Shown here: positions 10,089-39,544 of the stretch, piece by piece
How positions within the stretch are numbered: position 1 is the stretch's first letter
How the letters are laid out: every line of letters begins with the position of its first letter
DNA from: Candidatus Dojkabacteria bacterium
GTDB taxonomy: Bacteria; Patescibacteriota; Dojkabacteria; B142; JAFGMG01
Length of the DNA: 64,000 bases
NCBI GenBank assembly: GCA_016927655.1
Contig: JAFGMG010000001.1
Coordinates: forward strand, 179,599 to 243,598
Direction of reading: 5' to 3'
Made by a program: the position numbers and the translations under genes
Notes under the pieces: model-generated
Told to the model about the DNA's origin: nothing
The model's database searches: none
The model's input: only the letters and a program-made list of their open reading frames with translations

Positions 10089-10228
10089 CCGGCCTTAATA
10101 TTTGTTCACCGCCCTTGAATTCTGCTACAATGGGACTGTAACTATTTACTGCTTCTACTATGCTTTACGAGACATACTTGGGTCGCTATAAGAATATTCG
10201 CACAATCGGTAAAAAATACAAGAGATCA

Positions 10229-13200
10229 ATGTCTTTTATATTGCTTGCTGTTTTGGCATTCGGTCTGATACTTAATCCCCTGGTAACCCTGCCAGCAGGA
10301 GCAAGTCAAACGATCACCGCAGTTGGGACTGACAAACTTAAAAACCCGGATTATTATCCAAAAAAGACAGAGAATTTAATCGCTAAAACTACTGAAATTA
10401 TCGGGCTGGATTCAGAGATCACTCCAGCGCAGGTTTTTGAATTTGAAAAAGAAACATCCGGCTTCTATTTTACACTCAGAGCCGGAGAAAATTTCTCAGA
10501 GAGCAGTTTCAAGGTTGAATATCCTTCCGGAGAAATTTCAGACGAATATCTAATTCAAGAAAGTGACGTGTATTTTGGAGAAGATAGCTCAACCAGTTTA
10601 GGAAATAGAACTTCGGAATTATATTTATTCAATCAGGGAGTTACAAAAGTTTTGGTGTATTGCGGTTCAGATACCGAATTTGAAATCCATCAGATTGGTG
10701 AGCAAAACAACGACTTTGAAGATTCTCTTGGCCTAACGCAAATCAAAGCATTTAGCAGTACACCAGCCGAGACAACCTACAAAGAAGCGCTATTTAGCAA
10801 TATGGGCTTTAATATTATCACAAGAGAAGAATGGGGGGCACCAACAGAAAGCGGATGGGGACCGACAATTGCGGATGTAAATAGAATTGTGATTCATCAT
10901 ACCGCTACAAGTGTCGATATGAGCAATCCTAAAAATACTGTAAAAGCAATTTATGACTATCACAAAATAAGATGCAACAACAATATCGGCACCGCACCAA
11001 CATACTGCGACTATGCAGATACATGGCAGGATATTGGCTACAACTATTTGATCGATCCATATGGGAATGTCTACGAAGGCCGGGCAGGAGGCAATGGAGT
11101 TGTCGGCGCCCATGCTATTCCAAATACGGGAAGTATTGGTATTTCAATTTTGGGCGACTACAGCAATCAAGTACCAACCAGCGCTTCTTTGAATGCCTTA
11201 TCAACACTTATGGCAAGATTGAGTTTGATCAATAATTTTTCACTGACAAAAGGATCCAGTGTACTCGGACATAGAGATGTAAATGCAACGGCTTGTCCGG
11301 GGAATGCTTTTTATAGCAAACTAAGTACAGTTACAAGCAATGCAAATCAAATCAGAACTACTGCCTCTACAGCAAAAACAGCAAATACAAAGATCAACGA
11401 TTATCTTGCTCCAGAACGTGAATATATCAAAAAAGACGGAAAGACCCAGCTAATAGTTGATACGACAGGGCTTAGCCTAACTATGATCGAAAAGCTTTCT
11501 ACAGTATCTAGGGGGATTGATGAGATTACAGAAATTGATAATGGGCTGATTTATACTGTTGATGATGCGAAGGCTGATCAGGTAATTGGAGAGACATATG
11601 TTGCTGCCAGCAGTACCAAAATTCAGCCTGATTTTATATATAGGCTTGAATCCTGGGACAATACTGATCCGGATAGATCAATTCCAAGCGACTATGATGT
11701 CAGTACTCACTGGAACCTGGAAAAGACAAATACGCCAGAAGCCTGGAAAGACCTGGGAGGATGTACTGGCGATGATAGCTGCGGGGGAGATTCGAGTGTA
11801 ATAGTAGCAGTACTAGACACTGGAGTAGCTTATGAAGACTTTGATTTCGATGCCGGAGGGACATATTCTACTACCAAGTATTCCGGTTTATGGATTGATG
11901 TTCCTGGAGCTGCTGCAAATGGAACATACAATGAAGGCTACGACAGGCAATTTTATCAATTACCGGAACTCGCAGGAGTGAATTTTGTCGATCCATATGA
12001 CCCCGCGTGGGATTTGCTTTGCAGCATAAGAACAGGCGGCGGTGCCTGCAACGCAACCGAGCTTGCAAAAATTGATCATCCAAACGACGATAATGGCCAT
12101 GGTACTTTTGTGACAACGATTATTGCCGGAGATACCGGAGACACTGCACCTAATAAAGTTGTTGGAATTGCTCACAACGTATCTATAATGCCGGTAAAAG
12201 TTATGCTTCCAAATGATAGAAGTATGTGCCAGACAGCAGCAGGAGCACTTGATCTGACCTGCGCTGATTATCGATATGATTACCGTTCGGTTGGCACCAC
12301 ATCTACTATTGTTGCTGGGATCGAGCACGCGGTAGACAATGGCGCTGATGTGATCAACATGAGTCTTGGTGGAGAAGGAACAGATTCAGTAATGGAAGCC
12401 GCGGTTGATGCAGCTGTAGCTGCAGGTGCAATTGTAGTGGTCTCCTCAGGTAATGAAAATGATGATATAGCGAATTATTTCCCAGCTTCATTTAATAATG
12501 TAATTGCTGTCGGAGCAACAAACACAGATGATAGCAGATCCTCCTATACAAATTATGGAGAAGAGCTTGATATTTCTGCTCCAGTTGGCACTACGATTAG
12601 ATCTAGAACTTTGAATTGCTATCCAAGCGAAAATGACTGTTCTAACGAAGCAACGTTAGACTTTTCAGTGTTTTCGTCTGAATCGACACCAAAAACAAGC
12701 AGCGGGACAAGCTTTGCAGCGCCGCAGGTTAGTGCCGCAGTTGCCCTGCTGAAATCATATAAGCCATTTCTTAATTATGAAATGATAAAAGCACTTTTAT
12801 ATCAAAATTCTACAGATATAGGAACGGCAGGCAAAGACAATCTTACCGGCTGGGGATTATTAGATATAGAGGCATCGCTAATCGGAGCGGATTATGCATT
12901 TCCCGCATCAAGCAAATGGCATGATTGGTTTGCACCATACGGAGAAGTGCCCGAGGTTGGTGACTTCAATCATGACGGATATGATGACATTGTGACTTTC
13001 ACAAGCGATGGATGGGGCGACGTATGGATCGCCCTAAACAACAGTGGGACGGGCTTTAATACTTCTTCAAAATGGCATGACTGGTTCGCGCCATATGATG
13101 AGATCCCGGCAGTTGGAGATTTTAATGACGATGGATATGACGATATCATAACCTTTACAAGTGATGGGTGGGGCGATGTATGGGTCGCTCTTAATGATCA

Positions 13201-13834
13201 GGCCGGAGGGTTTGATACTGCCACAAAATGGCATGACTGGTTTGCACCATTTAATGAGATTCCAAGAATTGGAGATTTCAACGGAGATGGTTACGATGAT
13301 ATAGCAACCTTTACAAGTGATGGGTGGGGCGATGTATGGATTGCTCTTAATAATCAAACCGGAGGATTCAACACCGCAACCAAATGGCATGACTGGTTCG
13401 CACCTTTCGATGAAATACCGGCAGTTGGAGATTTTAATAATGACAGCTATGATGATATAGCAACTTTTACGAGCGATGGATGGGGCGATGTATGGGTCGC
13501 TCTTAATAGCCAGTCCAGTAGTTTTAATACATCTACAAAATGGCATGATTGGTTTGCCCCTTATGATGAGATCCCTGCAATCATGAATTTTGATGGCGAT
13601 ACAGATTTAGATATTGTTACCTTTACAAGTGACGGTTATGGGGATGTATGGCTTGCAACAAGTGATGGGGGGACTGGATTTAACCCATCACACCTTGCCC
13701 ATTACTGGTTTGCGCCATTTAATGAAATTCCTAAAGTCGGAGATTTTGACGGTGATGGGAAAGATGATCTAGCCACTTTTACCAACGACTCTAATTGGTG
13801 GGGAGACGTCTGGGTATCTATAAATCAGAACTAG
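10229..13834 (+). CDS. secreted multidomain cell-wall hydrolase: Amidase_2/PGRP domain + subtilisin-like S8 peptidase + 7x FG-GAP-like repeats
   Basis: Signal/TM MSFILLAVLAFGLILNPLVTLPAGASQ; the track ORF starts at 10160, and the ATG at 10229 gives a signal-peptide N-terminus. Amidase_2 motifs HHTAT...GYNYLID...GAHAIPNTGSIGISILGDY...LGHRDVNATACPG. S8 triad regions VAVLDTGV (Asp), HGTFVTTIIAG (His), GNE (oxyanion), GTSFAAPQVSAAVALL (Ser). Seven ~52-aa repeats KWHDWFAPYDEIPAVGDFNxDGYDDIxTFTSDGWGDVWxALN at the C-terminus. Confidence 0.8.
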   Translation: MSFILLAVLAFGLILNPLVTLPAGASQTITAVGTDKLKNPDYYPKKTENLIAKTTEIIGLDSEITPAQVFEFEKETSGFYFTLRAGENFSESSFKVEYPSGEISDEYLIQESDVYFGEDSSTSLGNRTSELYLFNQGVTKVLVYCGSDTEFEIHQIGEQNNDFEDSLGLTQIKAFSSTPAETTYKEALFSNMGFNIITREEWGAPTESGWGPTIADVNRIVIHHTATSVDMSNPKNTVKAIYDYHKIRCNNNIGTAPTYCDYADTWQDIGYNYLIDPYGNVYEGRAGGNGVVGAHAIPNTGSIGISILGDYSNQVPTSASLNALSTLMARLSLINNFSLTKGSSVLGHRDVNATACPGNAFYSKLSTVTSNANQIRTTASTAKTANTKINDYLAPEREYIKKDGKTQLIVDTTGLSLTMIEKLSTVSRGIDEITEIDNGLIYTVDDAKADQVIGETYVAASSTKIQPDFIYRLESWDNTDPDRSIPSDYDVSTHWNLEKTNTPEAWKDLGGCTGDDSCGGDSSVIVAVLDTGVAYEDFDFDAGGTYSTTKYSGLWIDVPGAAANGTYNEGYDRQFYQLPELAGVNFVDPYDPAWDLLCSIRTGGGACNATELAKIDHPNDDNGHGTFVTTIIAGDTGDTAPNKVVGIAHNVSIMPVKVMLPNDRSMCQTAAGALDLTCADYRYDYRSVGTTSTIVAGIEHAVDNGADVINMSLGGEGTDSVMEAAVDAAVAAGAIVVVSSGNENDDIANYFPASFNNVIAVGATNTDDSRSSYTNYGEELDISAPVGTTIRSRTLNCYPSENDCSNEATLDFSVFSSESTPKTSSGTSFAAPQVSAAVALLKSYKPFLNYEMIKALLYQNSTDIGTAGKDNLTGWGLLDIEASLIGADYAFPASSKWHDWFAPYGEVPEVGDFNHDGYDDIVTFTSDGWGDVWIALNNSGTGFNTSSKWHDWFAPYDEIPAVGDFNDDGYDDIITFTSDGWGDVWVALNDQAGGFDTATKWHDWFAPFNEIPRIGDFNGDGYDDIATFTSDGWGDVWIALNNQTGGFNTATKWHDWFAPFDEIPAVGDFNNDSYDDIATFTSDGWGDVWVALNSQSSSFNTSTKWHDWFAPYDEIPAIMNFDGDTDLDIVTFTSDGYGDVWLATSDGGTGFNPSHLAHYWFAPFNEIPKVGDFDGDGKDDLATFTNDSNWWGDVWVSINQN
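12910..13830 (+). repeat. seven tandem ~156-nt coding repeats (FG-GAP/VCBS-like, DxNxDGxDD Ca-binding-like motif)
   Basis: Direct reading. The unit starts (aaatggcatgaytggtt) recur at about 12913, 13069, 13225, 13381 and 13537, plus a diverged unit and a final unit. The repeat also produces the spurious antisense ORF 13067..13546. Confidence 0.8.
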
Positions 13835-23376: not shown

Positions 23377-26283
23377 TTAAGAGCTTCTATATTTGAGAAT
23401 CTCTATTAATTCTTTCCCAAGCTTTTTAATGTCAAATTGTTTCACATATTTCTTCAGGCTTTCCCCTCTATACCAGTTTTTTGCCAATACCTTTTTAAGT
23501 TCCTGCGTTAATTCCTGTTGATCAAGTTTTGTAACAAAATACGCATTCTCCCCTTCTACTAGCACTTCCTTTTTTGCTCCCGCATCTGTTGCAATAACAG
23601 GAAGACCCATTGCCAGGGCTTCCATAATACTTGGGGGCATTCCTTCTATTTGGGATATTTGTACAAATACATCGCTAATGGCATACAACTCCCTAGGATC
23701 ATCCATAAAACTAAAGAGATTAACATTATCCCCTATGTTAAGACTTTCTATCAAATTCTCCAACTCATTTTTTTGTCCTCCTTCTCCGGCAAGTATTAGA
23801 CGAACCGGATCGAAACGTTCATCACTTTTAATTAGTTCTGCAAAACTCCTAACTAATAAGTCAAGATTTTTTACTGGTGACATTCTTCCTATGTAGCAGA
23901 ATACAAAACTGTCTTTGTAGATAGAGTATTTTTCTCTTATTCTCGACTTATCGAATAAACTACTATCAAAATATTCAAGGTCAATTGGAGTTGGCAGAAA
24001 TCTTACTTTTTTCTCAGATATCCCAAAATGTTCTCGGTAATGATCCTTTATCTTATTATTATTTACTATATGAAGGTCTAAAAATGTATCTTTTTCGATA
24101 GATAAGTCAAGGCACCCGTATTCACTATCATTATAAATGATATCGAAAATTCTTATTTTTGGATTTAACTTTAAACTTCCGATATTCATGTAGGCATACC
24201 TGCTATTGCTAATAATAATTTCCTCTATTGAATATTTTGTTATCTGCTCTGAAATAAAATCAAGCCAATACTTCTGATCAAGAATATTAGGAAGATTAAA
24301 AATACCAATTACATTTTGAGCCAGCTTACTATAAACATAGTCCTGTGCCGGAATGGTACCAATAATTATAAATTTATAACCATATTTTTCAGCTTCGTTT
24401 ATGTAGTTCATCCAGAACCTCTCTGCGCCTCCTCCTCCCACATTCGGAACAATCAATAGCACCACTTTTTCTTTTAAATTAATTTCTTTGTCATTATTAA
24501 ATTTAGCCATTTGGAATTTTGGCTTTTTCTTATTTTGTTTGCCGGCAGGCTTGTAATGGTCTACAGTATAAATATCTGGATGCAGTCTTCTGATCTTTAT
24601 CTTTAGGACATCATCTATCTTATTCGCTTTTTCACTCAAACTTTCGTTGGAATGTTTTCGATAATAGAATAACGGTTCCGGTATTTTGTACCCTACCCAT
24701 CCTGTTTTTGATATGCTTAGCCAAAATTCCCAATCTTCGTGAGCATTTTTCATTTCTTCCTTATAACCTCCAACCTCTTCCCAGCAGACTTTTCTAAATG
24801 CAGACGCAGTGAAAATTTGATTATGCACTTTTAAATGGTCTGGTTCAAAAACACCCGCAGGATAAATTGTATTTTCTTTGCCGAACATCTGAAGGTCACT
24901 AAATACCACACCTACTTCAGGCATTGTTTCGAATACCCATATACACTTTTCTAAATAGGACTTCTCAAGTTTATCATCGGCATCAAGGCAGATAATGTAT
25001 TTACCCTTCGCCATACCTATTCCTTTATTCCTTGAGTAAACAACTCCTTTATTTGATGAATTGCGAGAGACTTGAATCGGTATCTCAGAATCCATTTCCT
25101 GGATTTCCTTTAATATCTTCTGAGTTGTTTTATCGTCTGAATTATCGTCAATAATAATTATCTCGGTCCTCTTCCATGTTTGCTTTTGGATACTAAGGAT
25201 TGCCTCAGGCAGTAACCGGCCGTAGTTATAACAGGGGATTATTACCGAGATAACTGGGATTTCTTCTGAAATGTGCTGCTGCCCTTCAATCCTATAATAT
25301 CTTCCCTCCCCTCTTGTAAATTTTCTTATGCGGGAGATGACTCGGGCAATTTTTGAATCAACAATAAAATTCTTCATTCGATCAATCAGCCTTTCAATGC
25401 GAGATAAAACAAGATTATTCCCAATAACTACATCAAAATTCCGATCTGTCCGCAAACTTATATCTTCCAATCTGTTAAATTTTTTGTTATTAAAATCCTT
25501 TTCCTTCAAATCTTTAATCACAATGTCTTTGTATAATAAATCCCTGTCTTTTGCTTTTAGCACATCAACAAGGTATTTCTGATATAACTCTTTATGCTTT
25601 GCGTAAATATATGCAAGATTATCCTGAATTTTCAGTGGATCGTTTCTTAGAGCTCCGAGCATTGATGCTTTTCTGACACGGTAAGAGAAGAGTATTTCCG
25701 GGATTGTGTATACCTTTGCCCCATGAGAAAGGCAGTTTATCCAGAACTCCCAATCTTCATAGCCATCCCGCATAGATTGATCATAACCTCCAACTTCCTC
25801 CCAAATTTGCCTCCTATACATAGAGGCCACCTGTATGTTATTTTTATAAAGCAAAAATGGGAGCTTTGCATTGTTTAATTCAATTACACTTTACGTTTCT
25901 CCAAATGTACGCATCCATGTATTTACAACGTGAATTTCAGGATGTTTATCGAGATAATCACATGCCTTCTTTAAAAAACTCGGATGATATTCATCATCAG
26001 CGTCTATACAACAGATATATCCCCCGGTCGCGCTTTTGATCCCCGTATTTCTTGCACCGGGCAATCCCATGTTCTTTTGTTGAATGATCTTTATATCCGG
26101 CCTTTTATTTCTTAAATTCTCTAACTTCGCGATAGAAAACTCATCCGTGCTTCCGTCATTAACTATTACTATCTCAAATTCCTTCAAAGTTTGTTTCTCA
26201 AGGGATATCATAAAGGAGTCAATGAATTCTCCCATATTATAATAGGGAACTATTACACTAATTTTTGTTTTCTTTTTCACCAT
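23377..26283 (-). pseudogene. tri-domain GT2-GT2-GT4 glycosyltransferase interrupted by a single in-frame TAA (25891-25893); pieces are 25891..26283 and 23377..25854
   Basis: The two minus-strand ORFs are in the same frame. Translating through the gap gives ...WMRTFGET*SVIELNNAKLPFLLYKNNIQVASMYRRQIWEEVGG, collinear residue-for-residue with the intact paralog at 32384..35305 (WMSTFGEYETTYQFNSTDLRDLLKENILHVSSIFKKDVWEKVGG). The stop sits where the paralog has Glu (GAA to TAA). The downstream piece only begins at a TTG. Confidence 0.6.
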
Positions 26284-26291
26284 GATCTCTT

Positions 26292-26343
26292 ATTTATCAT
26301 TTATCATTTATCATTTATCATTTATCATTTATCATTTATCATT
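26292..26343. repeat. heptanucleotide microsatellite (ATTTATC)7 plus partial unit
   Basis: Direct reading: perfect units at 26292-26340, then a partial att. It lies 9 nt upstream of the ATG (26281-26283) of the minus-strand GT fragment. It also contains the TGA stop (26325-26327) of the upstream minus gene. Confidence 0.9.
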
Positions 26344-27440
26344 AAATGGTCCAGGTTATCAATTATACTACGGACTTCTCCTTTCACTCTATCTACAATC
26401 TTAAACATTTTTTCATAATCCTCTCTCACATCAATTCCCTTTTTTTTATAATCGAAAGAGATTTTTTCTAATTGATCCAGATTAGTAATTGTATATTTTT
26501 CACTCAAAATACCATAGCCCTGAAGAGCTTTCGCCTTCTGCTTATAAAAATCATTCATGGCCACAAGATACAAAGGGCACTGCAATCTATTTCTAGCAAT
26601 CATATAAGTGTGGTACGAATTGACTATTCCAAAAGAATAATCTCTCAATGCAAACAGCCTTTTGGAAAAATCTATTACATATTTGTAATTGACTTTAAGA
26701 TTAAGCCCAAGTTCATCGTATAGACACTTTGCTTCTCTTACTTTAGATATATCTTTATTAAAACTGCTATACATATCAATACGATACTTTTTGCCAATTT
26801 TATTAAGGAATCTTTTATATTTTCCTGCTATTTCTTTTTTAAATCCCTCATCAGCATCATACATATAATCGTTTAAAGAAAGCTGTACAAATGCCTTTTT
26901 TGATGGCCGGCTCAATGCTCGATAAATCGAATCTCTTCGTTTAGTTCTCTGTAAATGGAAAAATGCCTCATCACAAATATATGCATCTTTCACTCCCATT
27001 AGTTTCCGGGATGCCTCCCCTCTGTATGATACCCACTTAAAATATTTTGGAGATCTGCCTATTTGTTTCCTGTATTTTTTATAAAAAGTCTCATCAATTT
27101 GGATCCCAGTTACAATCAACGGTATTTTCAAATCCTTTAGCTTGACAATTAATTTTAAAAAATCATCTCCCCAATATTTATTTAAATAGCCTCCGCCATA
27201 CATATGTACACAATCTATTCCCTCATTGCTTTTTAGTCTAGTCATAAAATCCTCATAGTTTTCCAATTTGATGCCCGGCAGAGCCTCTTGTATTCTTTGT
27301 TTGCCATCCTTGTAGTGCAAAAACACCACCCTCACGTTATCTAATTTCTCGTAGAAGTCTATCCAAACCCTGGCTTGTATAACATCACCAAAATTATCAT
27401 TTATCATAAAGCCCCCAATCAGGTATATCGTTTTTTCCAT
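26325..27440 (-). CDS. polysaccharide pyruvyl transferase-like (PS_pyruv_trans family)
   Basis: N-terminus IYLIGGFMINDNFGDVIQARVWIDFY resembles the GYYGxGNLGDEAIL opening of CsaB/WcaK-type enzymes. 371 aa. Confidence 0.5.
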   Translation of the reverse strand: MEKTIYLIGGFMINDNFGDVIQARVWIDFYEKLDNVRVVFLHYKDGKQRIQEALPGIKLENYEDFMTRLKSNEGIDCVHMYGGGYLNKYWGDDFLKLIVKLKDLKIPLIVTGIQIDETFYKKYRKQIGRSPKYFKWVSYRGEASRKLMGVKDAYICDEAFFHLQRTKRRDSIYRALSRPSKKAFVQLSLNDYMYDADEGFKKEIAGKYKRFLNKIGKKYRIDMYSSFNKDISKVREAKCLYDELGLNLKVNYKYVIDFSKRLFALRDYSFGIVNSYHTYMIARNRLQCPLYLVAMNDFYKQKAKALQGYGILSEKYTITNLDQLEKISFDYKKKGIDVREDYEKMFKIVDRVKGEVRSIIDNLDHLMINDK

Positions 27441-28645
27441 CTGCTAATTCTAATTAGTTTTATTAAATAAATAATTTTATAGTAGATATTATTCTTACGA
27501 AATATTTCTTGATAGCTCCGAGAAATATAACGCCTTAAAGACTCCTTTAACTGTCCCTCGTCATTTCCTAAATGTTTTAAAAAATACTCCCACACATAAA
27601 TCCTGTGCTTTGGAGAAGTATCAATACTATCGAAATCACTCTCATCTATATTATGTTTAAATTTCTCAAACTTATTTAAAACTCCGTATATTTTCAACTG
27701 CAGCATTGTCCGCAGGCATTTTTCACACTGGGAGCAATTATATTGGTTCCCGATATTTCTCCAGCATACTCGTAAATATTTTCGAACAAGAAGATTGTCT
27801 TTTATATCTTTGATCTTCTCTATCCTACTTAAAGCTGACCCATAAGGAATAAACTTTAGAGATGAATTCGACCAAAGAGGATCCATATCTGGATGGGTCC
27901 CATATGCTGCCCCGGTAATGTATGAATCAGAAGAATTTATGTATACTTGTCCAAACAAATTTCTGAATATAAGTGCTGCTGCTGCTAAACCAGCGCCATG
28001 ACACATTTCCCATTCATTTGCACTATTTACCGGGAACAAATTTAGGAATTCTCGATAATTAGTTTGTACGATGATAGATCTCAATCCTGTTGCCTTTGAT
28101 ATTCCATCTAAAGAATTTAAAAATTCTTTGGATAGTTTCTTGTTTTCTATATCAATATCATAGCCAATTATACTTAGTAGGTATTTCAGATTTGTCTTCT
28201 TGTCTTTTTGCAAATTAAGCATCGTATAGAAAGAATCAACTCCAGCAGTAAAAAACATTGCGGAAGACTTTTCTTTCTTTATTCGCAAGCTTTTTGGTGA
28301 GCTTTTTGCCTGTCTTTGATCTGTTCGAATTTCAATAGTATTTAACTTTTTGTGCCAGCTGTCAGATACCTCCCAAGGTCTAATTAATTTTTGCAGTTTA
28401 TCAATATTATCCAGAAAGGCCTCATCCACAGCACCATTTATTTGTATATTTTCCGGTATTCCCATTGATGGGATCAAAACTGCTGCAAGAAACCCGTCAT
28501 ATGATTTCGAAAGGAATTTAGAATATTGCTTATTTACCTCAAAATACAATTCAAAATTTTTAACACCAACCTTTTCATAACTCAGCGTTACAGAAACCCT
28601 GGTACTGTTAGTATTCTTCTTAATCCTTAAATTCTCTATTAGCAT
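27419..28645 (-). CDS. hypothetical protein, possible PP-loop ATPase-like (adenine-nucleotide alpha-hydrolase-like) with C-terminal CxxC
   Basis: MFFTAGVDSFYTM resembles a degenerate SGGxDS PP-loop; CSQCEKC lies near the C-terminus. No confident family assignment. Confidence 0.4.
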   Translation of the reverse strand: MLIENLRIKKNTNSTRVSVTLSYEKVGVKNFELYFEVNKQYSKFLSKSYDGFLAAVLIPSMGIPENIQINGAVDEAFLDNIDKLQKLIRPWEVSDSWHKKLNTIEIRTDQRQAKSSPKSLRIKKEKSSAMFFTAGVDSFYTMLNLQKDKKTNLKYLLSIIGYDIDIENKKLSKEFLNSLDGISKATGLRSIIVQTNYREFLNLFPVNSANEWEMCHGAGLAAAALIFRNLFGQVYINSSDSYITGAAYGTHPDMDPLWSNSSLKFIPYGSALSRIEKIKDIKDNLLVRKYLRVCWRNIGNQYNCSQCEKCLRTMLQLKIYGVLNKFEKFKHNIDESDFDSIDTSPKHRIYVWEYFLKHLGNDEGQLKESLRRYISRSYQEIFRKNNIYYKIIYLIKLIRISRWKKRYT

Positions 28646-30268: not shown

Positions 30269-31181
30269 TATTTATTCTCTCAATTGAACGAATTATGTAG
30301 CCAGATCCTTCTTTTGTATCGCGCAAAATAGTCTCAAGGTATTTTATAATAAAAACCGATAGAGTGAGCATGCCTGTAAATCCAAAAATCCCCATAAGAA
30401 TAGTTAATTTTATCAATATTTCAAAATTCAGTTGAATAAATGCGAATACCAAAGAAACTACAAAAGACAACGCAAAAATGACAAGAAGAACCGATGAAAA
30501 AATTACCGGGATGTTTGAATAACTTACCACAACATCCAAAGCAAATGATAACCTAGTTATCAACGACCCATCTCTTTTGATTTTACTTTTACTTTTAGGG
30601 GTGTATTTTATAAGTGTATTTTTGAACCCAGTGTATTTATATAAAATTTTTCGATACCTTGATCTTCCCTTAGCCCTCACTGTTGCATTGATTGCTCTTC
30701 TGCTCACTAGCCTTACATTTTCAGGCTTTAAATCATATTTCAAATGCCCAGCGATATTGACCATCATATAAAAAATTCTTGTTCCTAATCCTTGGAATCT
30801 CTGTGCGCTTCCTGCGACAACATCATATCCCTGATCTGCTTTGTCCATCAGATCTCTTAATAATTTCAATGAATAATCTACATTTCTCAGATCTATTTCA
30901 TACACGAAATCACCAATAGAGAGATCTATGCCTGCCTTTATCCCAGCCTCTACCCCCTGTTTCCAGGCCATTGTGATTAGAGTAAATGGCACAAAAACAG
31001 ATTCGCCAGCCTTTACAATTTCTTTTATTGTGCCATCCCGGCTCGCATCATCGATAATTATAATCTCAAAGTTTTCAAAATATCGATCAAGATAATTATA
31101 AATTCTCAATACCAGATTCTTGACTGTCGATTCTTCTTCATATACGTATGCAACCAAAGAAACAAAGCTTTGTTTTTTCAT
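30261..31181 (-). CDS. GT2 polyprenyl-phosphate glycosyltransferase (GtrB/ArnC/DPM1-like) with C-terminal TM helices
   Basis: FENFEIIIIDDASRDGT and a DxD region, then two or three C-terminal TM helices (VVVSYSNIPVIFSSVLLVIFALSFVVSLVFAFI...). Confidence 0.75.
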   Translation of the reverse strand: MKKQSFVSLVAYVYEEESTVKNLVLRIYNYLDRYFENFEIIIIDDASRDGTIKEIVKAGESVFVPFTLITMAWKQGVEAGIKAGIDLSIGDFVYEIDLRNVDYSLKLLRDLMDKADQGYDVVAGSAQRFQGLGTRIFYMMVNIAGHLKYDLKPENVRLVSRRAINATVRAKGRSRYRKILYKYTGFKNTLIKYTPKSKSKIKRDGSLITRLSFALDVVVSYSNIPVIFSSVLLVIFALSFVVSLVFAFIQLNFEILIKLTILMGIFGFTGMLTLSVFIIKYLETILRDTKEGSGYIIRSIERINNE

Positions 31182-32296
31182 ATTAAAATTTCGTCTAGGT
31201 CATATATTGTGCTCATCTTTCCGGATAAAACACTTGTAAAATTGGGGCTTTTATTTGCTTGTACTATAACAGTAGGCCTTGAGTCATCTACTTCAGAAGA
31301 CTGAAGAACCGGCTTAAGTGTGTACAATGATTCTTTATAATTATAGCTTATTTCCGGAACCAAATATTTTTTCGCTAACTGGCTCATATATTTCCATGCT
31401 GTTGCTGGTTTTCTGCTCTGCTTTACCCCTTTGTTATTAGGCTTAAGGAATTTAAAGTCCGGGAGATCTGCTTTGCTGCTCTTATGTGGAGTAAATGAAA
31501 CAGATGTCAGAGAGTGGTTCTTAGAAAGGCCAAAAGGCATTAGAGAAAAAAAAGGACCATCCATCACAGTCAGTCCGATATTTTTAATGTTGTTGCTCAC
31601 ATCACAGATAATTACTTCGCAGTATTCATACTTTATCGGGAAGTATTCATAGCCGAAGACCTTTAGCACTTCGTTTATCCCGGCATACGTTAAATTCAGC
31701 ACATTTGGAGTAAGAATCTTCTCGCCTGTATTTAGCCTCAAAAAGTATTTATCATTTTTTATTATCGCTTTCTTTACGATCGTATTTAAAGAGATGTCAG
31801 CCTTCTCGTATTTTGATAGTTCACTTAAGAAATACTCCCTAATCTTGATTGCGTCATAAGAATACTCATGTGTTTTAAAAGCCGCTTCTACAAACCCCTC
31901 ATTAAAGTATTTTGATGAGTCTATCTCTTCACACTCAACTCCAATATTGCTGCAGAACTTTTTATAACTTGCTGCATTTGTATGCGAGAAGACACTCGAT
32001 ATTGCATATATTTTGGAAAATTCTTTATTGATTGCAAAATCAAAATCTCTGGAGAATTTTTCGAAGTATTGAATTGTTTTTTGTGCTGTTGCAACACTTC
32101 GCGGATAATGATACCCCTTATGCAGCCTTGCCTGATTTACATACGAGCCCGCATTCAATGGAAGATTGGTTTTTTCAATCATTAAAACACTACGACCTTT
32201 CCTGGCTAACTTCTCGGCAGCATATAAGCCAAATATTCCAGCCCCGATTATTACATAGTCATATTCTTTTTGATTATAATATTCCTCTGTAGGCAT
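31178..32296 (-). CDS. FAD-dependent oxidoreductase (Rossmann GxGxxG; UDP-galactopyranose-mutase/amine-oxidase-like N-terminus)
   Basis: YDYVIIGAGIFGLYAAEKLARKGRSVLMIEK is a classical FAD dinucleotide-binding motif. Weak resemblance to Glf, and only at the N-terminus. Confidence 0.6.
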   Translation of the reverse strand: MPTEEYYNQKEYDYVIIGAGIFGLYAAEKLARKGRSVLMIEKTNLPLNAGSYVNQARLHKGYHYPRSVATAQKTIQYFEKFSRDFDFAINKEFSKIYAISSVFSHTNAASYKKFCSNIGVECEEIDSSKYFNEGFVEAAFKTHEYSYDAIKIREYFLSELSKYEKADISLNTIVKKAIIKNDKYFLRLNTGEKILTPNVLNLTYAGINEVLKVFGYEYFPIKYEYCEVIICDVSNNIKNIGLTVMDGPFFSLMPFGLSKNHSLTSVSFTPHKSSKADLPDFKFLKPNNKGVKQSRKPATAWKYMSQLAKKYLVPEISYNYKESLYTLKPVLQSSEVDDSRPTVIVQANKSPNFTSVLSGKMSTIYDLDEILI

Positions 32297-32383
32297 AAAA
32301 TGCAGTCTGGGGCAGAATTAACTCTTAGTATTTTTAAAGGCTTTGTAGTATCATTAGCGCACGTAATCATAACACGAATCCTT

Positions 32384-35305
32384 ATGAAAAATAAGCAACC
32401 GAAGGTAAGCGTGATCATAACTTACTTTAACATGCAAAACTATATTGATTTTGCATTAAAAAGTGTTTTTAAACAAACTTATCCTAATATTGAAATTATT
32501 CTTGTCGATGATGGGTCGCCAGATATCGAAGCAATAAAAAAACTCGAGAAACTTCAGACAACTTATAAAAATCGCGTCTTATTTATAAACCAAAAAAACA
32601 AAGGTCTGCCTGCTGCTAGAAACACCGGGATAAAAAGCTCCAAAGGAGATTTTCTGTGTTGTCTCGATGCCGATGATATTCTTGAACCTAGTTTTATTGA
32701 AAAGGCAATCGAGAGTTATAAGACAAATCCCGAAGTTTCAATTGTCACTTCCTGGATGTCAACATTTGGAGAATATGAAACAACGTATCAATTTAATTCT
32801 ACTGATTTAAGAGATCTACTGAAGGAGAATATCCTCCATGTCTCCTCAATATTTAAGAAAGATGTGTGGGAAAAAGTCGGCGGCTTTGATGAAAATTTTA
32901 TTAACGGCTTTGACGACTGGGAATTTTGGATAAATGCAGCCAAGCATGACTTCAAATGGATGATTATTCCAGAAGTCCTTTTCAATTACAGGATAAGGAA
33001 AAACTCGATGAGTTCCCAGATTGAAAAGAACACCGCAAGGGAAATCGGCTTATATAACAGGCTTTATACAAAGCATATCAGCTTATTTAAAAAATATGCT
33101 CTCGATATTTTAATATCCAAGGATTTCAGCATAAGCTGGCATAAAGGGCAATTGCGTATCCTGAAAGAAAGCCAACCTAAAAATGAGGAGAATAAAGATA
33201 AACAAGAAGAATCTGCCAATATTGACGAAACCCTGGAGATTGTCAAAACAAATAGCCTGATTCTCCAACGTTTTAATGGGGTGCTTAATAGGACGGAACG
33301 TTATCTAAAAATGTTTGGACTATATATATTGATTCGAATAGTCCGTCGCACAAGACATATTTTGAAATATAAAGAATATCCATTCTTACCTAAGCGTTAC
33401 GGCCAAATGGCAGATACCGGGATTTATAACCGCAACAAGCCATTGGTGAGCGTCATTATTCCCTGCTTCAATTATGGAGCATACATCCAGGAAGCTGTCT
33501 CAAGTGTCAAATCACAATCCTGGAACAATCTTGAGATAATAATTGTTAACGATAAATCAACTGAAAAGGAAACGATAAATATATTAAAGAAACTAAAAAA
33601 AGATCCTGGGATAAAACTGCTTGAGAATAAAGAAAATTCCGGAGTTGTATATACAAGAAACAGAGGAATAAAGGAAGCCCGGGGAAAATATATTTTATGT
33701 CTTGACGCAGATGACAAACTTGATCCATCTTATATTGAAAAATGTATCTGGGTTTTTGAGAGGAATCCGCAAATTGGAGTTGTTTATTCAGATTTGCAGA
33801 TGTTCGGGAATTCAAATGATTTTTATAAATTTGGAAATTTTGATATAAGGGCGCTTATGAAGTGGAATCAAGTTACAACAGCGGCAATGTTTAGGAAAGT
33901 CTGTTGGGAACAGACTGGTGGATATAAAGAGGAAATGCGTTATGGGCATGAGGATTGGGAGTTGTGGCTTTCGATAGCTGAAAAAGGCTGGGAAGGCTAC
34001 AAAATACCCGAGCCATTATTTTTTTACCGCACACACTCCAAATCAAGTCTAAGTCATAAAGCCTTAGAAATAAATAACAATCTAATTTCAAGAATTAAGA
34101 CTCTACATACTCCCCTTTATTCACTCCCAAATCCATACAAGATTCGTAAAAAAGTTTTTCCACTGAAATCGGTCAAAGATAATAAAATTAACTATGATAA
34201 ACCAGAAAGCAAGAAGAATGTGGTTTTACTTTTCGTACCCTTTGTAATAGCCGGTGGCGCCGAAAAACTATGGGCGAATATTGCTCAGGAAATCAGTAAA
34301 TCCGGTTACAAGATTTTAATTATTGGAACAAATGAAGCCGAACAGGAAATATATCCCGAACTTCTTGAAAATACGATTGGTATCTTTAATCTAAAAAAGT
34401 TTGCCGCTAAAAAAGATTGGGAAAAATTTATTTTCTCACAGATTAAAAAATACTCCGTACGAAACGTAATAATAAGCAATAATGCCTACGTTTATAAGAA
34501 CACTAAATTGCTGAAAGCTTTAAGAGCAAAAGACATAAAAGTCATGGATATTGTATACAATGATAGTGCATATGGATTTCTGGACCAATCAATAAAAATC
34601 GATAGACTTTTAGACAGACATTTCGTAAACAATCCAGAAATTATTAAATCTTATAAAAAAGCAGGAATAGACCCTCAAAAAACTAACTTCATACCCTCAT
34701 GTGTAAACCTGAAAAATTACGATTATAAAAAATACAATTCAGTAAAGTTAAGGACAAAATTCAAGGCGAATAGAGATAATTTCTTGATTACCTATATTGG
34801 AAGATTATCGCCAGAAAAAAATGTCGAGTCTTTAGTACAAGCAATCAGTGACCTGCGAGTACAAAAAAGCCCACTTGGTAAAAGAATCCGGCTCAATATA
34901 ATAGGCAGCGGGATGCAGGAAAAACATCTTAAAAAATTAGCCAAAAAACTATCTATTTCTAAACAGGTCCATTTTTTTCCCTTTACAAGCAAAGTTCAAG
35001 AATTCTATGCTGCAAGTGATCTTTTTGCTCTTGTCTCGACAATTGACGGGTTTCCTTTGACTATAATTGAATCCGTGGCAATGGGGGTTCCTGTTCTTGC
35101 TACGAATATTGGCGCAAAAAAGAACCTGCTCAAACACAAGCAGAATGGCTATTTGATAGAAAGCCCTGATAGATTTGCAATCTCGAAGGCACTTGAAGAT
35201 ATATATAATAATGATTATTTCCTTGATAGAGCCTCAATTCGTGAATCAGCAAAAGAATACAACGTGGATAAAGTAGCTGGGATTCTACTAAAAGAGTTAA
35301 AGTGA
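32384..35305 (+). CDS. tri-domain GT2-GT2-GT4 glycosyltransferase (intact paralog of 23377..26283)
   Basis: GT2 #1 VSVIITYFNMQNYI..LVDDGSPD..CLDADD; GT2 #2 VSVIIPCFNYGAYI..IVNDKST..CLDADD; GT4 C-terminus EX7E FPLTIIESVAMGVPVLAT. The track ORF starts at 32270, overlapping the divergent gene; the ATG at 32384 (MKNKQPK) is the more plausible start. Confidence 0.8.
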   Translation: MKNKQPKVSVIITYFNMQNYIDFALKSVFKQTYPNIEIILVDDGSPDIEAIKKLEKLQTTYKNRVLFINQKNKGLPAARNTGIKSSKGDFLCCLDADDILEPSFIEKAIESYKTNPEVSIVTSWMSTFGEYETTYQFNSTDLRDLLKENILHVSSIFKKDVWEKVGGFDENFINGFDDWEFWINAAKHDFKWMIIPEVLFNYRIRKNSMSSQIEKNTAREIGLYNRLYTKHISLFKKYALDILISKDFSISWHKGQLRILKESQPKNEENKDKQEESANIDETLEIVKTNSLILQRFNGVLNRTERYLKMFGLYILIRIVRRTRHILKYKEYPFLPKRYGQMADTGIYNRNKPLVSVIIPCFNYGAYIQEAVSSVKSQSWNNLEIIIVNDKSTEKETINILKKLKKDPGIKLLENKENSGVVYTRNRGIKEARGKYILCLDADDKLDPSYIEKCIWVFERNPQIGVVYSDLQMFGNSNDFYKFGNFDIRALMKWNQVTTAAMFRKVCWEQTGGYKEEMRYGHEDWELWLSIAEKGWEGYKIPEPLFFYRTHSKSSLSHKALEINNNLISRIKTLHTPLYSLPNPYKIRKKVFPLKSVKDNKINYDKPESKKNVVLLFVPFVIAGGAEKLWANIAQEISKSGYKILIIGTNEAEQEIYPELLENTIGIFNLKKFAAKKDWEKFIFSQIKKYSVRNVIISNNAYVYKNTKLLKALRAKDIKVMDIVYNDSAYGFLDQSIKIDRLLDRHFVNNPEIIKSYKKAGIDPQKTNFIPSCVNLKNYDYKKYNSVKLRTKFKANRDNFLITYIGRLSPEKNVESLVQAISDLRVQKSPLGKRIRLNIIGSGMQEKHLKKLAKKLSISKQVHFFPFTSKVQEFYAASDLFALVSTIDGFPLTIIESVAMGVPVLATNIGAKKNLLKHKQNGYLIESPDRFAISKALEDIYNNDYFLDRASIRESAKEYNVDKVAGILLKELK

Positions 35306-38322: not shown

Positions 38323-38344
38323 AGTAGATTTGGGAAAGATTTTA

Positions 38345-39544
38345 TCATTTACCCTTATATAGTTCTAATAAAAATAACTCAAGCTGACTGCCCAAACTAT
38401 CAAGACTATAGTTTTTTTCAACCCAGTTTTTTGCATTTTTTGCGATCTCTCCTCTTTGTTCTGATCTGATAAAGTTTCTCAACACTTCATACCACTTCTC
38501 GCTCGATTCGACAATCATCCCAGTTTCCATGTTTTTAATTACCGAAGCTAGATCGCCCACCGCACTTGCTACAGTCGGGACTTCACACAAGGCTGCTTCA
38601 AGAAATTTGATTTCGCTTTTTCCTCGATTAAACTCGGTATTTTCAAGCGGGAGCAAATTGATATCAATACCCGCTAAAGTTTCCATATATTTTTCTCGGC
38701 TCATAAACGGCAGATGTTTTATTCTTGAGCTCAGACTACCTGTCGCGAATTTTCTTTTGTCGATTCTGCCGCCAAGCCACAGCTCAAAATTTTCGTCTTC
38801 TTCAAGAATATTTTTGACAGCAGGCCAGATAATTTCAAAGTCTCGATCATGCGTTTCTGAACCACTAAAATAGCCAAGTATTATTTTTTGATTTTCAGCC
38901 TTCAATTTCAGCCGTTTTCTTTTTTCATCTAAAATCCCATTTCTGTTTACGAAAACCTCGCCTTGAATATGTTTTTTCATATCTTCAGCTAGATATTTTG
39001 TACTTGCGATCCCAGCGTCAACCTCTTGCATTAGTGCCAGCATTCCATCTGCCCTTTTTAATAAAAGTTCTGCATCCTCAGAGAAAAGGGCTTTTGTATA
39101 ATCTAAATTCTCAATTAAATCCCTGCGATAAACAAAATCATCCACACTAAAAATCGTTTTAATCCCTCTTTGCCTGGCCTGCTCAAAAATTCCACAGACA
39201 GCACTTAAAGGCGTCCTATAAAAAACAATGTATTTATAATTGGCAACATCCACCCCTTCAGCAAATTTTTCAAAAACAATATCTACCTGCCAGCCTCTCA
39301 TCTCAAGCTGCCTGGCAGGAATTTCACATCTGTAATAAGACGTAGCATTTTTGGGTTCTCCGCTGACAAAGAGCAGACTTTCAACATTCAAGGCTTTCTT
39401 GCCCTTTTTTTGGGGTAAATGGTAATACCTTCCTAGTCGTATTTTCCTGTCAAAAAAAATAAACAGCCTCTTTATGAATTCTCCAACTCCATAATCTCGA
39501 ATTGTCTTATATGATTTATTAAGAAATCTTAACATCAAACTCAT
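38345..39544 (-). CDS. GT-B fold glycosyltransferase (GT4-like)
   Basis: C-terminal EIKFLEAALCEVPTVASAVG is an EX7E-like region. 399 aa. Confidence 0.55.
   Translation of the reverse strand: MSLMLRFLNKSYKTIRDYGVGEFIKRLFIFFDRKIRLGRYYHLPQKKGKKALNVESLLFVSGEPKNATSYYRCEIPARQLEMRGWQVDIVFEKFAEGVDVANYKYIVFYRTPLSAVCGIFEQARQRGIKTIFSVDDFVYRRDLIENLDYTKALFSEDAELLLKRADGMLALMQEVDAGIASTKYLAEDMKKHIQGEVFVNRNGILDEKRKRLKLKAENQKIILGYFSGSETHDRDFEIIWPAVKNILEEDENFELWLGGRIDKRKFATGSLSSRIKHLPFMSREKYMETLAGIDINLLPLENTEFNRGKSEIKFLEAALCEVPTVASAVGDLASVIKNMETGMIVESSEKWYEVLRNFIRSEQRGEIAKNAKNWVEKNYSLDSLGSQLELFLLELYKGK

Follow-up and report, generated by a model that had tools for sequence, protein, structure and literature searches.

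A perfect GATAAAT microsatellite at a gene junction of a Candidatus Dojkabacteria glycan cluster, best read as a start-proximal heptanucleotide array and not as a dedicated contingency switch

Introduction

Simple sequence repeats (SSRs) with a unit of seven nucleotides are reported to be the most abundant class of long SSRs in many prokaryotes (Mrazek et al. 2007, summarized in PMC4679880), and in several described systems such a repeat lies a short distance upstream of a gene. The TAACTGA arrays of Beggiatoaceae, Cyanobacteria and Bacteroidetes run in the forward direction, a few nucleotides upstream of start codons (MacGregor 2015, PMC4679880). Each frame of these arrays meets a stop, the arrays lack structure and their surroundings are poor in Shine-Dalgarno sequences, and the genes that they precede follow no functional pattern (PMC4679880). 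In H. influenzae, 7-bp repeats upstream of hmw1A and hmw2A modulate expression (Dawid et al. 1999, cited via PMC2651432), and a TonB-dependent receptor gene of the same species is preceded, at a distance of 13 bp, by an (AACAACC)1-7 tract (Power et al. 2009, PMC2651432). Repeats of other unit lengths occupy 5' UTRs in Moraxella catarrhalis, with poly-G at uspA1 and (AGAT)n at uspA2 (cited in PMC4679880).

Here we analyze a heptanucleotide array in a stretch of 64 kb of DNA (the window) from a Candidatus Dojkabacteria bacterium. The array lies between a pyruvyl-transferase-like gene and a glycosyltransferase gene, and the initial annotation of this DNA took it for a candidate phase-variation (contingency) switch. 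A life in attachment to host cells is assumed for candidate-phyla-radiation (CPR) bacteria, so that stochastic variation of surface glycans, if true, would bear on host range and on phage escape. Our literature search found nothing linking CPR bacteria or Dojkabacteria with SSR phase variation; if the copy number of this array varied and tuned the glycosyltransferase, the locus would be the first of contingency type in a CPR bacterium. We combine repeat, promoter and folding analysis of the window with comparison to a relative and a survey of the same repeat in other genomes, and set the array beside the systems described above.

Results

The repeat is real and slightly shorter than it was first taken to be. 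Tandem Repeats Finder places a period-7 repeat of unit ATTTATC at positions 26292-26343, with 7.4 copies, 100% matches, no indels and a score of 104, and direct reading of the sequence confirms the same bases. On the minus strand, which is the strand of both flanking genes (hereafter the gene strand), the tract reads (GATAAAT)x7 followed by AAT. The initial annotation was right that the repeat is perfect, and its start at 26284 takes in eight non-repeat bases (26284-26291). Its claim that such an array exceeds chance also holds: a three-unit 21-mer has five overlapping matches in the tract and none in 100 dinucleotide-preserving shuffles, and a scan of the 64-kb window for perfect SSRs (unit of 2-10 nt, at least 3 copies, at least 14 nt) returns this tract as the only one. 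There is no second GATAAAT array in the 64-kb window, and near-copies of two or more units occur elsewhere in it at chance level. Perfect SSR tracts such as (GATAAAT)x7 are slippage-prone, and the uninterrupted perfection of seven copies hints at slippage that is recent or still under way, or else at selection that keeps the tract pure. The window also contains a repeat of a different sort at 12914-13656 (plus strand), where a 156-nt unit recurs in tandem about 4.3 times with 74-76% matches inside the 1224-aa ORF 10160-13834; since this unit encodes a recurring ...GDFNxDGYDDI... motif, it points to a repeat-domain protein and not to an SSR.

The unit itself has a strong asymmetry between strands. 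Read directly, GATAAAT places a TGA or TAA in three of three frames of the gene strand, just as had been claimed, and on the opposite strand ATTTATC is stop-free in every frame (ATT TAT CAT TTA TCA TTT ATC). Folding predicts that the RNA of the array is unstructured, and an Rfam search with the array and its spacer gave no family match.

The tract spans the end of one gene and the approach to the next. The upstream gene (26325-27440, minus strand, 371 aa) is identified as polysaccharide pyruvyl-transferase-like by a match to PF04230 (E=9.8e-6) and by the NCBI name of an identical protein, MBN1331476.1, which comes from a 255,869-bp contig of a Candidatus Dojkabacteria bacterium. Its ORF ends in ...HLMINDK*, with the final five codons (MINDK) and the TGA encoded by the array; the translation of the ORF thereby confirms the earlier claim that the array holds the upstream TGA (26325-26327), which sits 2.7 units into the tract. 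Because the array terminates all three frames, the upstream protein is independent of copy number. An intercistronic spacer of 41 nt follows (26284-26324, minus strand), composed of 33 nt of array and 8 nt of unique sequence (26284-26291, AAGAGATC), so that the array stops 8 nt before the glycosyltransferase ATG at 26281-26283 (minus strand). Since the 8 nt adjoining the ATG lie outside the array, the immediate start context is unaffected by slippage. Near the other end of the pyruvyl-transferase gene, at 27392-27405 (minus strand), two near-units, GATAAATGATAATT, encode the MIND of an N-terminal GGFMINDNFGD motif; this repeat-like MIND and the repeat-encoded C-terminal MINDK are probably a coincidence of AT-rich codon use.

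Both genes belong to a compact run. From 32296 to 23377 all genes are co-directional on the minus strand, with junctions that range from overlaps of 22 nt to gaps of 52 nt, and we find no terminator-like site between the pyruvyl-transferase-like gene and the glycosyltransferase. In such a tightly packed, co-directional apparent operon the array would be an intercistronic spacer and not a promoter. Overlaps of the ATGA type are frequent in the window, where six of the 38 co-directional junctions overlap by 4 nt. Over the surrounding 20 kb, GT2, GT1, epimerase/dehydratase, ABC transporter and Glyphos_transf genes make up a cluster of glycan or teichoic-acid-like type.

We next ask how the same junction looks in a relative, for which the Dojkabacteria assembly GCA_014728495.1 (locus L004) is the sole recognizable candidate. 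The window's gene of 408 aa at 27419-28645 (minus strand), which has no Pfam match, forms together with the pyruvyl transferase and the glycosyltransferase a three-gene module that is conserved there: the first is 49% identical to the gene preceding the relative's pyruvyl transferase, the pyruvyl transferases share 46% identity, and the GT2 shares 55% as measured against the N-terminal fragment of the window gene. At L004 7100-7116 the stop of the relative's pyruvyl transferase and the start of its glycosyltransferase overlap by 4 nt, as ATGA, within agtAAATGATAAgtc, and there is no array. The 9-mer AAATGATAA at this overlap is the exact core of the window repeat. The same 9-mer recurs in the window at 38342-38350 (near-copy 38340-38353), where a gene ends in a TGA-TAA tandem stop, and a gene end of the form GAT AAA TGA TAA AT already amounts to two GATAAAT units. 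With an ATGA overlap in the relative and no array beside it, the window array has the look of a stop/start junction that slippage has expanded. Judged from one relative with 46-55% protein identity, it would most likely have expanded by slippage from an overlapping stop/start junction, which would make the locus a concrete example of how such a junction is able to seed a microsatellite. By eye, the 5' end of the glycosyltransferase appears to differ in length by 7 nt between the window and the relative, in DNA that is too diverged for reliable alignment.

On balance, then, we lean towards reading the array as a microsatellite of a known kind that arose between two cistrons by slippage and is probably near-neutral, at most a graded modulator of translational coupling. 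In the sequence of events that we propose, replication slippage at an ancestral overlapping junction of the form ...GAT AAA TGA TAA... would have produced the array and pushed the glycosyltransferase start about 45 nt away. The array would have been tolerated because the upstream protein is unchanged and the 8 nt at the downstream ATG are untouched. Any further slippage would change just the length of the unstructured, AU-rich spacer between the upstream stop and the downstream start, in steps of 7 nt. As spacer length is the sole remaining variable, any effect would be a graded one on coupling or re-initiation of the glycosyltransferase, or there would be none.

A more active role at the level of RNA is an alternative that we regard as rather unlikely, even though several observations speak for it. 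Here the AU-rich, unstructured sense array would serve as a ribosome loading or standby site that is independent of a Shine-Dalgarno sequence, or as a site for an S1-, Csp- or CsrA-like protein; a relay of termination and re-initiation could, in addition, carry ribosomes over from the pyruvyl-transferase gene to the start of the glycosyltransferase. The genome offers a suitable background. A Shine-Dalgarno core (GGAG, GAGG or AGGA at -20 to -4) is found upstream of 2 of the 53 ORFs in the window against a background of 10%, and from this depletion it would follow that initiation is largely Shine-Dalgarno-independent; we take the figures to suggest as much for this Dojkabacteria genome. The upstream regions of the window's ORFs are AT-rich, and many of its genes overlap by 4 nt. 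The predicted lack of structure in the array also favors a loading site, as does the arrangement of its start codons: read directly, the ATGs of the array open mini-ORFs (MINDK*), the last of which (MINKRSW*) has its TGA stop across codons 2-3 of the glycosyltransferase (ATGGTGA). The same role was proposed for TAACTGA by MacGregor 2015 (PMC4679880). Against it, one array in 64 kb gives no sign of a regulon-like spread in this genome, and the relative GCA_014728495.1 manages with a plain ATGA overlap.

Further evidence on this role comes from the occurrence of the repeat in other genomes. An exact search for four units, with one genome per species, finds (GATAAAT)x4 or more at no fewer than 120 places (at least; loci L005-L124) in many bacterial and archaeal phyla, and all counts given here are among the matches listed. 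The hosts among these matches include Pyrinomonadaceae, Prevotellaceae, Saprospiraceae, pleurocapsalean Cyanobacteria, a Bacillota MAG and several CPR and DPANN genomes, and copy numbers are mostly 4-5, reaching 7 or more in 12 of 135. Among the matches listed with long open frames on either side of the array, 43 have both frames on the GATAAAT strand and 14 have both on the other one (binomial p ~1.5e-4 with relatedness ignored, the loci being not phylogenetically independent); 20 pairs are divergent and 6 convergent. A same-strand ORF starts within 20 nt downstream of 34 of 96 arrays among the matches listed, as opposed to 7 of 96 on the other strand, and often the start is an ATG of the array itself. 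This bias towards sense orientation and proximity to starts, seen across phyla, speaks for a loading or binding site, and it is in part mechanical, because the unit itself offers an automatic ORF caller both ATGs and stops; to that extent the start-proximity figure is a by-product of the ATG and the stops in the unit.

Some of these genomes show a more particular arrangement. In five Pyrinomonadaceae species (L029, L054, L069, L100, L104), arrays of 4.4-5.0 copies abut a PIG-L/LmbE-like gene whose ATG is apparently the last ATG of the array; the gene was called by Pfam for L029 and by a shared FAHPDD-coding flank for L054, L069, L100 and L104. Such recurrence beside orthologous PIG-L genes again favors an RNA-level role. 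Many Pyrinomonadaceae arrays also have an inverted (ATTTATC)n 10-20 nt upstream, a potential hairpin (L008, L029, L034, L055, L056, L061, L066, L068, L097, L099, L105), and we find no inverted partner of this style for the window tract. In the Bacillota MAG Emb289P3bin92, a single genome holds at least seven GATAAAT arrays (L022, L042, L050, L062, L080), several of them followed, by eye, by a GC-rich hairpin and a T-run, much like a repeated intergenic element that contains the array. The ten downstream genes that we sampled encode an ammonium transporter/kinase fusion (Amt), a metallo-beta-lactamase-fold protein, FtsW/RodA, tRNA-guanine transglycosylase (TGT), a cytochrome c assembly protein, a dehydrogenase, a glutamine amidotransferase, diacylglycerol kinase (DAGK), ThiG and a PIG-L deacetylase. 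All are of housekeeping type and none is a typical contingency gene. We found no description of GATAAAT arrays in the literature searched, so (GATAAAT)n tracts adjoining start codons in many phyla form a wider pattern that is, in that literature, undescribed.

Now we consider the contingency locus proposed in the initial annotation, in which slipped-strand changes of copy number would alter the geometry of the promoter or 5' UTR and so switch or tune the glycosyltransferase, giving surface heterogeneity. We judge this reading quite unlikely. Its appeal is clear: the tract is, as a contingency tract should be, a perfect SSR longer than chance, and by a wide margin; it lies in a large glycan cluster, 8 nt 5' of the start of a glycosyltransferase gene, which is a typical setting for such loci; and H. 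influenzae provides precedents in the 7-bp repeats of hmw1A/hmw2A and in the (AACAACC)1-7 tract (PMC2651432). The difficulty is to find anything for the copy number to act on. In a consensus scan the gene strand shows no sigma-70-like -35/-10 pair within the array or near it, and the 52-bp tract is too long to be the spacer of one, which speaks against the proposed effect on promoter spacing. Promoter-like sites in the region number 34, with 38.5 expected from shuffled sequence. We also considered a promoter inside the array and rejected it, the only candidates being four overlapping weak sites on the plus strand, antisense to both genes. The earlier description of the array as part of the gene's 5' zone is therefore partly right, correct as to the position 5' of a glycosyltransferase gene in a surface-glycan cluster and unsupported as to a promoter zone, since the scan gives no promoter-like site on the gene strand there.

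The proposed effect on the ribosome-binding site or UTR fares no better. The 8 nt at the ATG lie outside the tract, and the predicted energy needed to open the region from -12 to +12 around the ATG stays at 2.9-3.6 kcal/mol for 0-14 units, so that predicted accessibility of the start site does not depend on copy number. With an unstructured array and a flat opening energy over 0-14 copies, both predicted, we rejected a switch based on RNA structure. Switching by frameshift is excluded by the stops in all three frames: the array lies outside the downstream ORF and stops every frame of the upstream one. Judged by its position, by the promoter scan and by predicted accessibility, the tract thus lies neither within an ORF that it could switch nor at promoter elements, and its copy number is not expected to change expression in the way that defines a contingency locus. 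Its place as the intercistronic spacer of an operon, its being a lone SSR in 64 kb and the housekeeping genes that follow the sampled GATAAAT arrays elsewhere all weigh in the same direction. As to material for comparison, exact-protein look-ups of three genes matched only Logan contigs of run SRR13394437, in these searches the species appears in that one run and in its NCBI MAG, a homologue search returned nothing more than 46% identical, and a search of JGI metagenomes with the sequence of the array/start junction gave no match.

The state of the downstream gene adds to the case against a switch. The initial annotation described a giant tri-domain glycosyltransferase as one ORF, and this has to be corrected to an interrupted gene. 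An in-frame TAA at 25891-25893 (minus strand) is codon 131 of a 969-codon frame (26283-23377) and splits it into ORFs of 130 aa and 825 aa. The first 130 codons (25891-26283, minus strand) hold the N-terminal half of GT2 domain 1, DXD motif included, and end at the TAA; the rest of the same frame (23377-25890, minus strand, 837 codons) holds, by Pfam, the remainder of that domain, a second GT2 domain and a GT1 domain. Logan contig L002 shows the same 130-aa ORF and comes from an independent assembly of run SRR13394437, and the TAA was therefore not introduced by the assembler of the window. We rejected an alternative genetic code as an explanation of this codon, given that all three stops end ORFs in the window (TAA 25, TGA 16, TAG 13), and we know of no recoding of TAA in this group. 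The TAA aligns with a Glu both in the relative's orthologue and in an intact GT2-GT2-GT1 paralogue in the window (32270-35305, plus strand, 1011 aa, 40% identity over the full length of the 23377-25890 remainder). Transcription of this paralogue is divergent, and the TTG called as its start lies in a 27-nt overlap with the start of the gene at 31178-32296 (minus strand).

A single GAA-to-TAA change in a frame that is otherwise intact points to recent inactivation. Judged by this frame, the glycosyltransferase gene would have worked until a very short time ago, and an intact copy may persist in other cells of the population. A nonsense mutation of such recent date is compatible with fluctuating selection, and to that extent with a contingency locus. 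For the gene as assembled the consequence is the reverse: because the glycosyltransferase already bears a premature TAA, the array currently controls nothing intact.

Discussion

Our preferred reading, a slippage-born and probably near-neutral intercistronic microsatellite, leaves two further alternatives to be weighed. One generalizes the RNA-level role to a class. The sense-oriented (GATAAAT)n arrays of Acidobacteriota, Bacteroidota, Cyanobacteria, Bacillota, CPR and DPANN would together form a putative cross-phylum class that abuts or supplies start codons and acts in Shine-Dalgarno-independent ribosome loading or protein binding, with copy number tuning translation. We hold this to be very doubtful; were it true, the window locus would rank as the first SSR-based rheostat of expression at a surface-glycan gene in a CPR bacterium. 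The other, that the assembler created the array or the join across it, is highly improbable: the Logan (k=31) contigs of SRR13394437 do break inside the array on both sides (L001 end, L002 start), but a break is expected at a 52-nt period-7 tract that exceeds k=31 and so is uninformative on the true sequence and on heterogeneity, at both contig ends about 30 nt of pure repeat join on to the same unique flanks, and the relative keeps the gene order found across the join (408-aa gene, pyruvyl transferase, GT2).

How, then, does the array compare with the systems described at the outset? With the 5'-UTR repeats of uspA1 and uspA2 it shares a location between upstream signals and a start codon, where copy number could tune expression. 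The Moraxella repeats differ in that they are of mono- and tetranucleotide type and lie in monocistronic 5' UTRs with measured effects; the window array is known from sequence alone.

The H. influenzae tracts are closer in kind, being non-coding heptanucleotide SSRs upstream of a surface-related gene, as is the window array. For them a graded modulation free of frameshift has been proposed, and the same proposal can be made for the window array. The hmw tracts lie about 70-106 bp upstream of their genes in a mapped promoter region and have 13-38 copies with documented strain differences. The window array, by comparison, sits 8 nt from the ATG inside an operon, has 7 copies and precedes a truncated gene.

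The likeness is broadest with the TAACTGA arrays and other long SSRs of that type. Like them, the window array is a perfect direct tandem of a 7-nt unit, intergenic, forward and proximal to a start. It likewise has all forward frames stopped, the reverse frames open and no predicted RNA structure, and in both cases the combination of forward stops with an open reverse strand limits overlap with a gene end to a few codons. In both, too, the host is poor in Shine-Dalgarno sequences, and the genes downstream of the sampled GATAAAT arrays follow no functional pattern, as is the case for TAACTGA. The differences are of unit, number and history. The window array is built of GATAAAT, it is the one array in 64 kb as opposed to 169 sets per genome, and it has 7.4 copies where TAACTGA arrays mostly have 2-6. 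Its host, unlike theirs, is a CPR bacterium, and it would have replaced an ancestral overlapping gene junction. With these differences in view, the array is best read as an instance of the widespread sense-oriented, start-codon-proximal heptanucleotide arrays, and not as a dedicated contingency switch.
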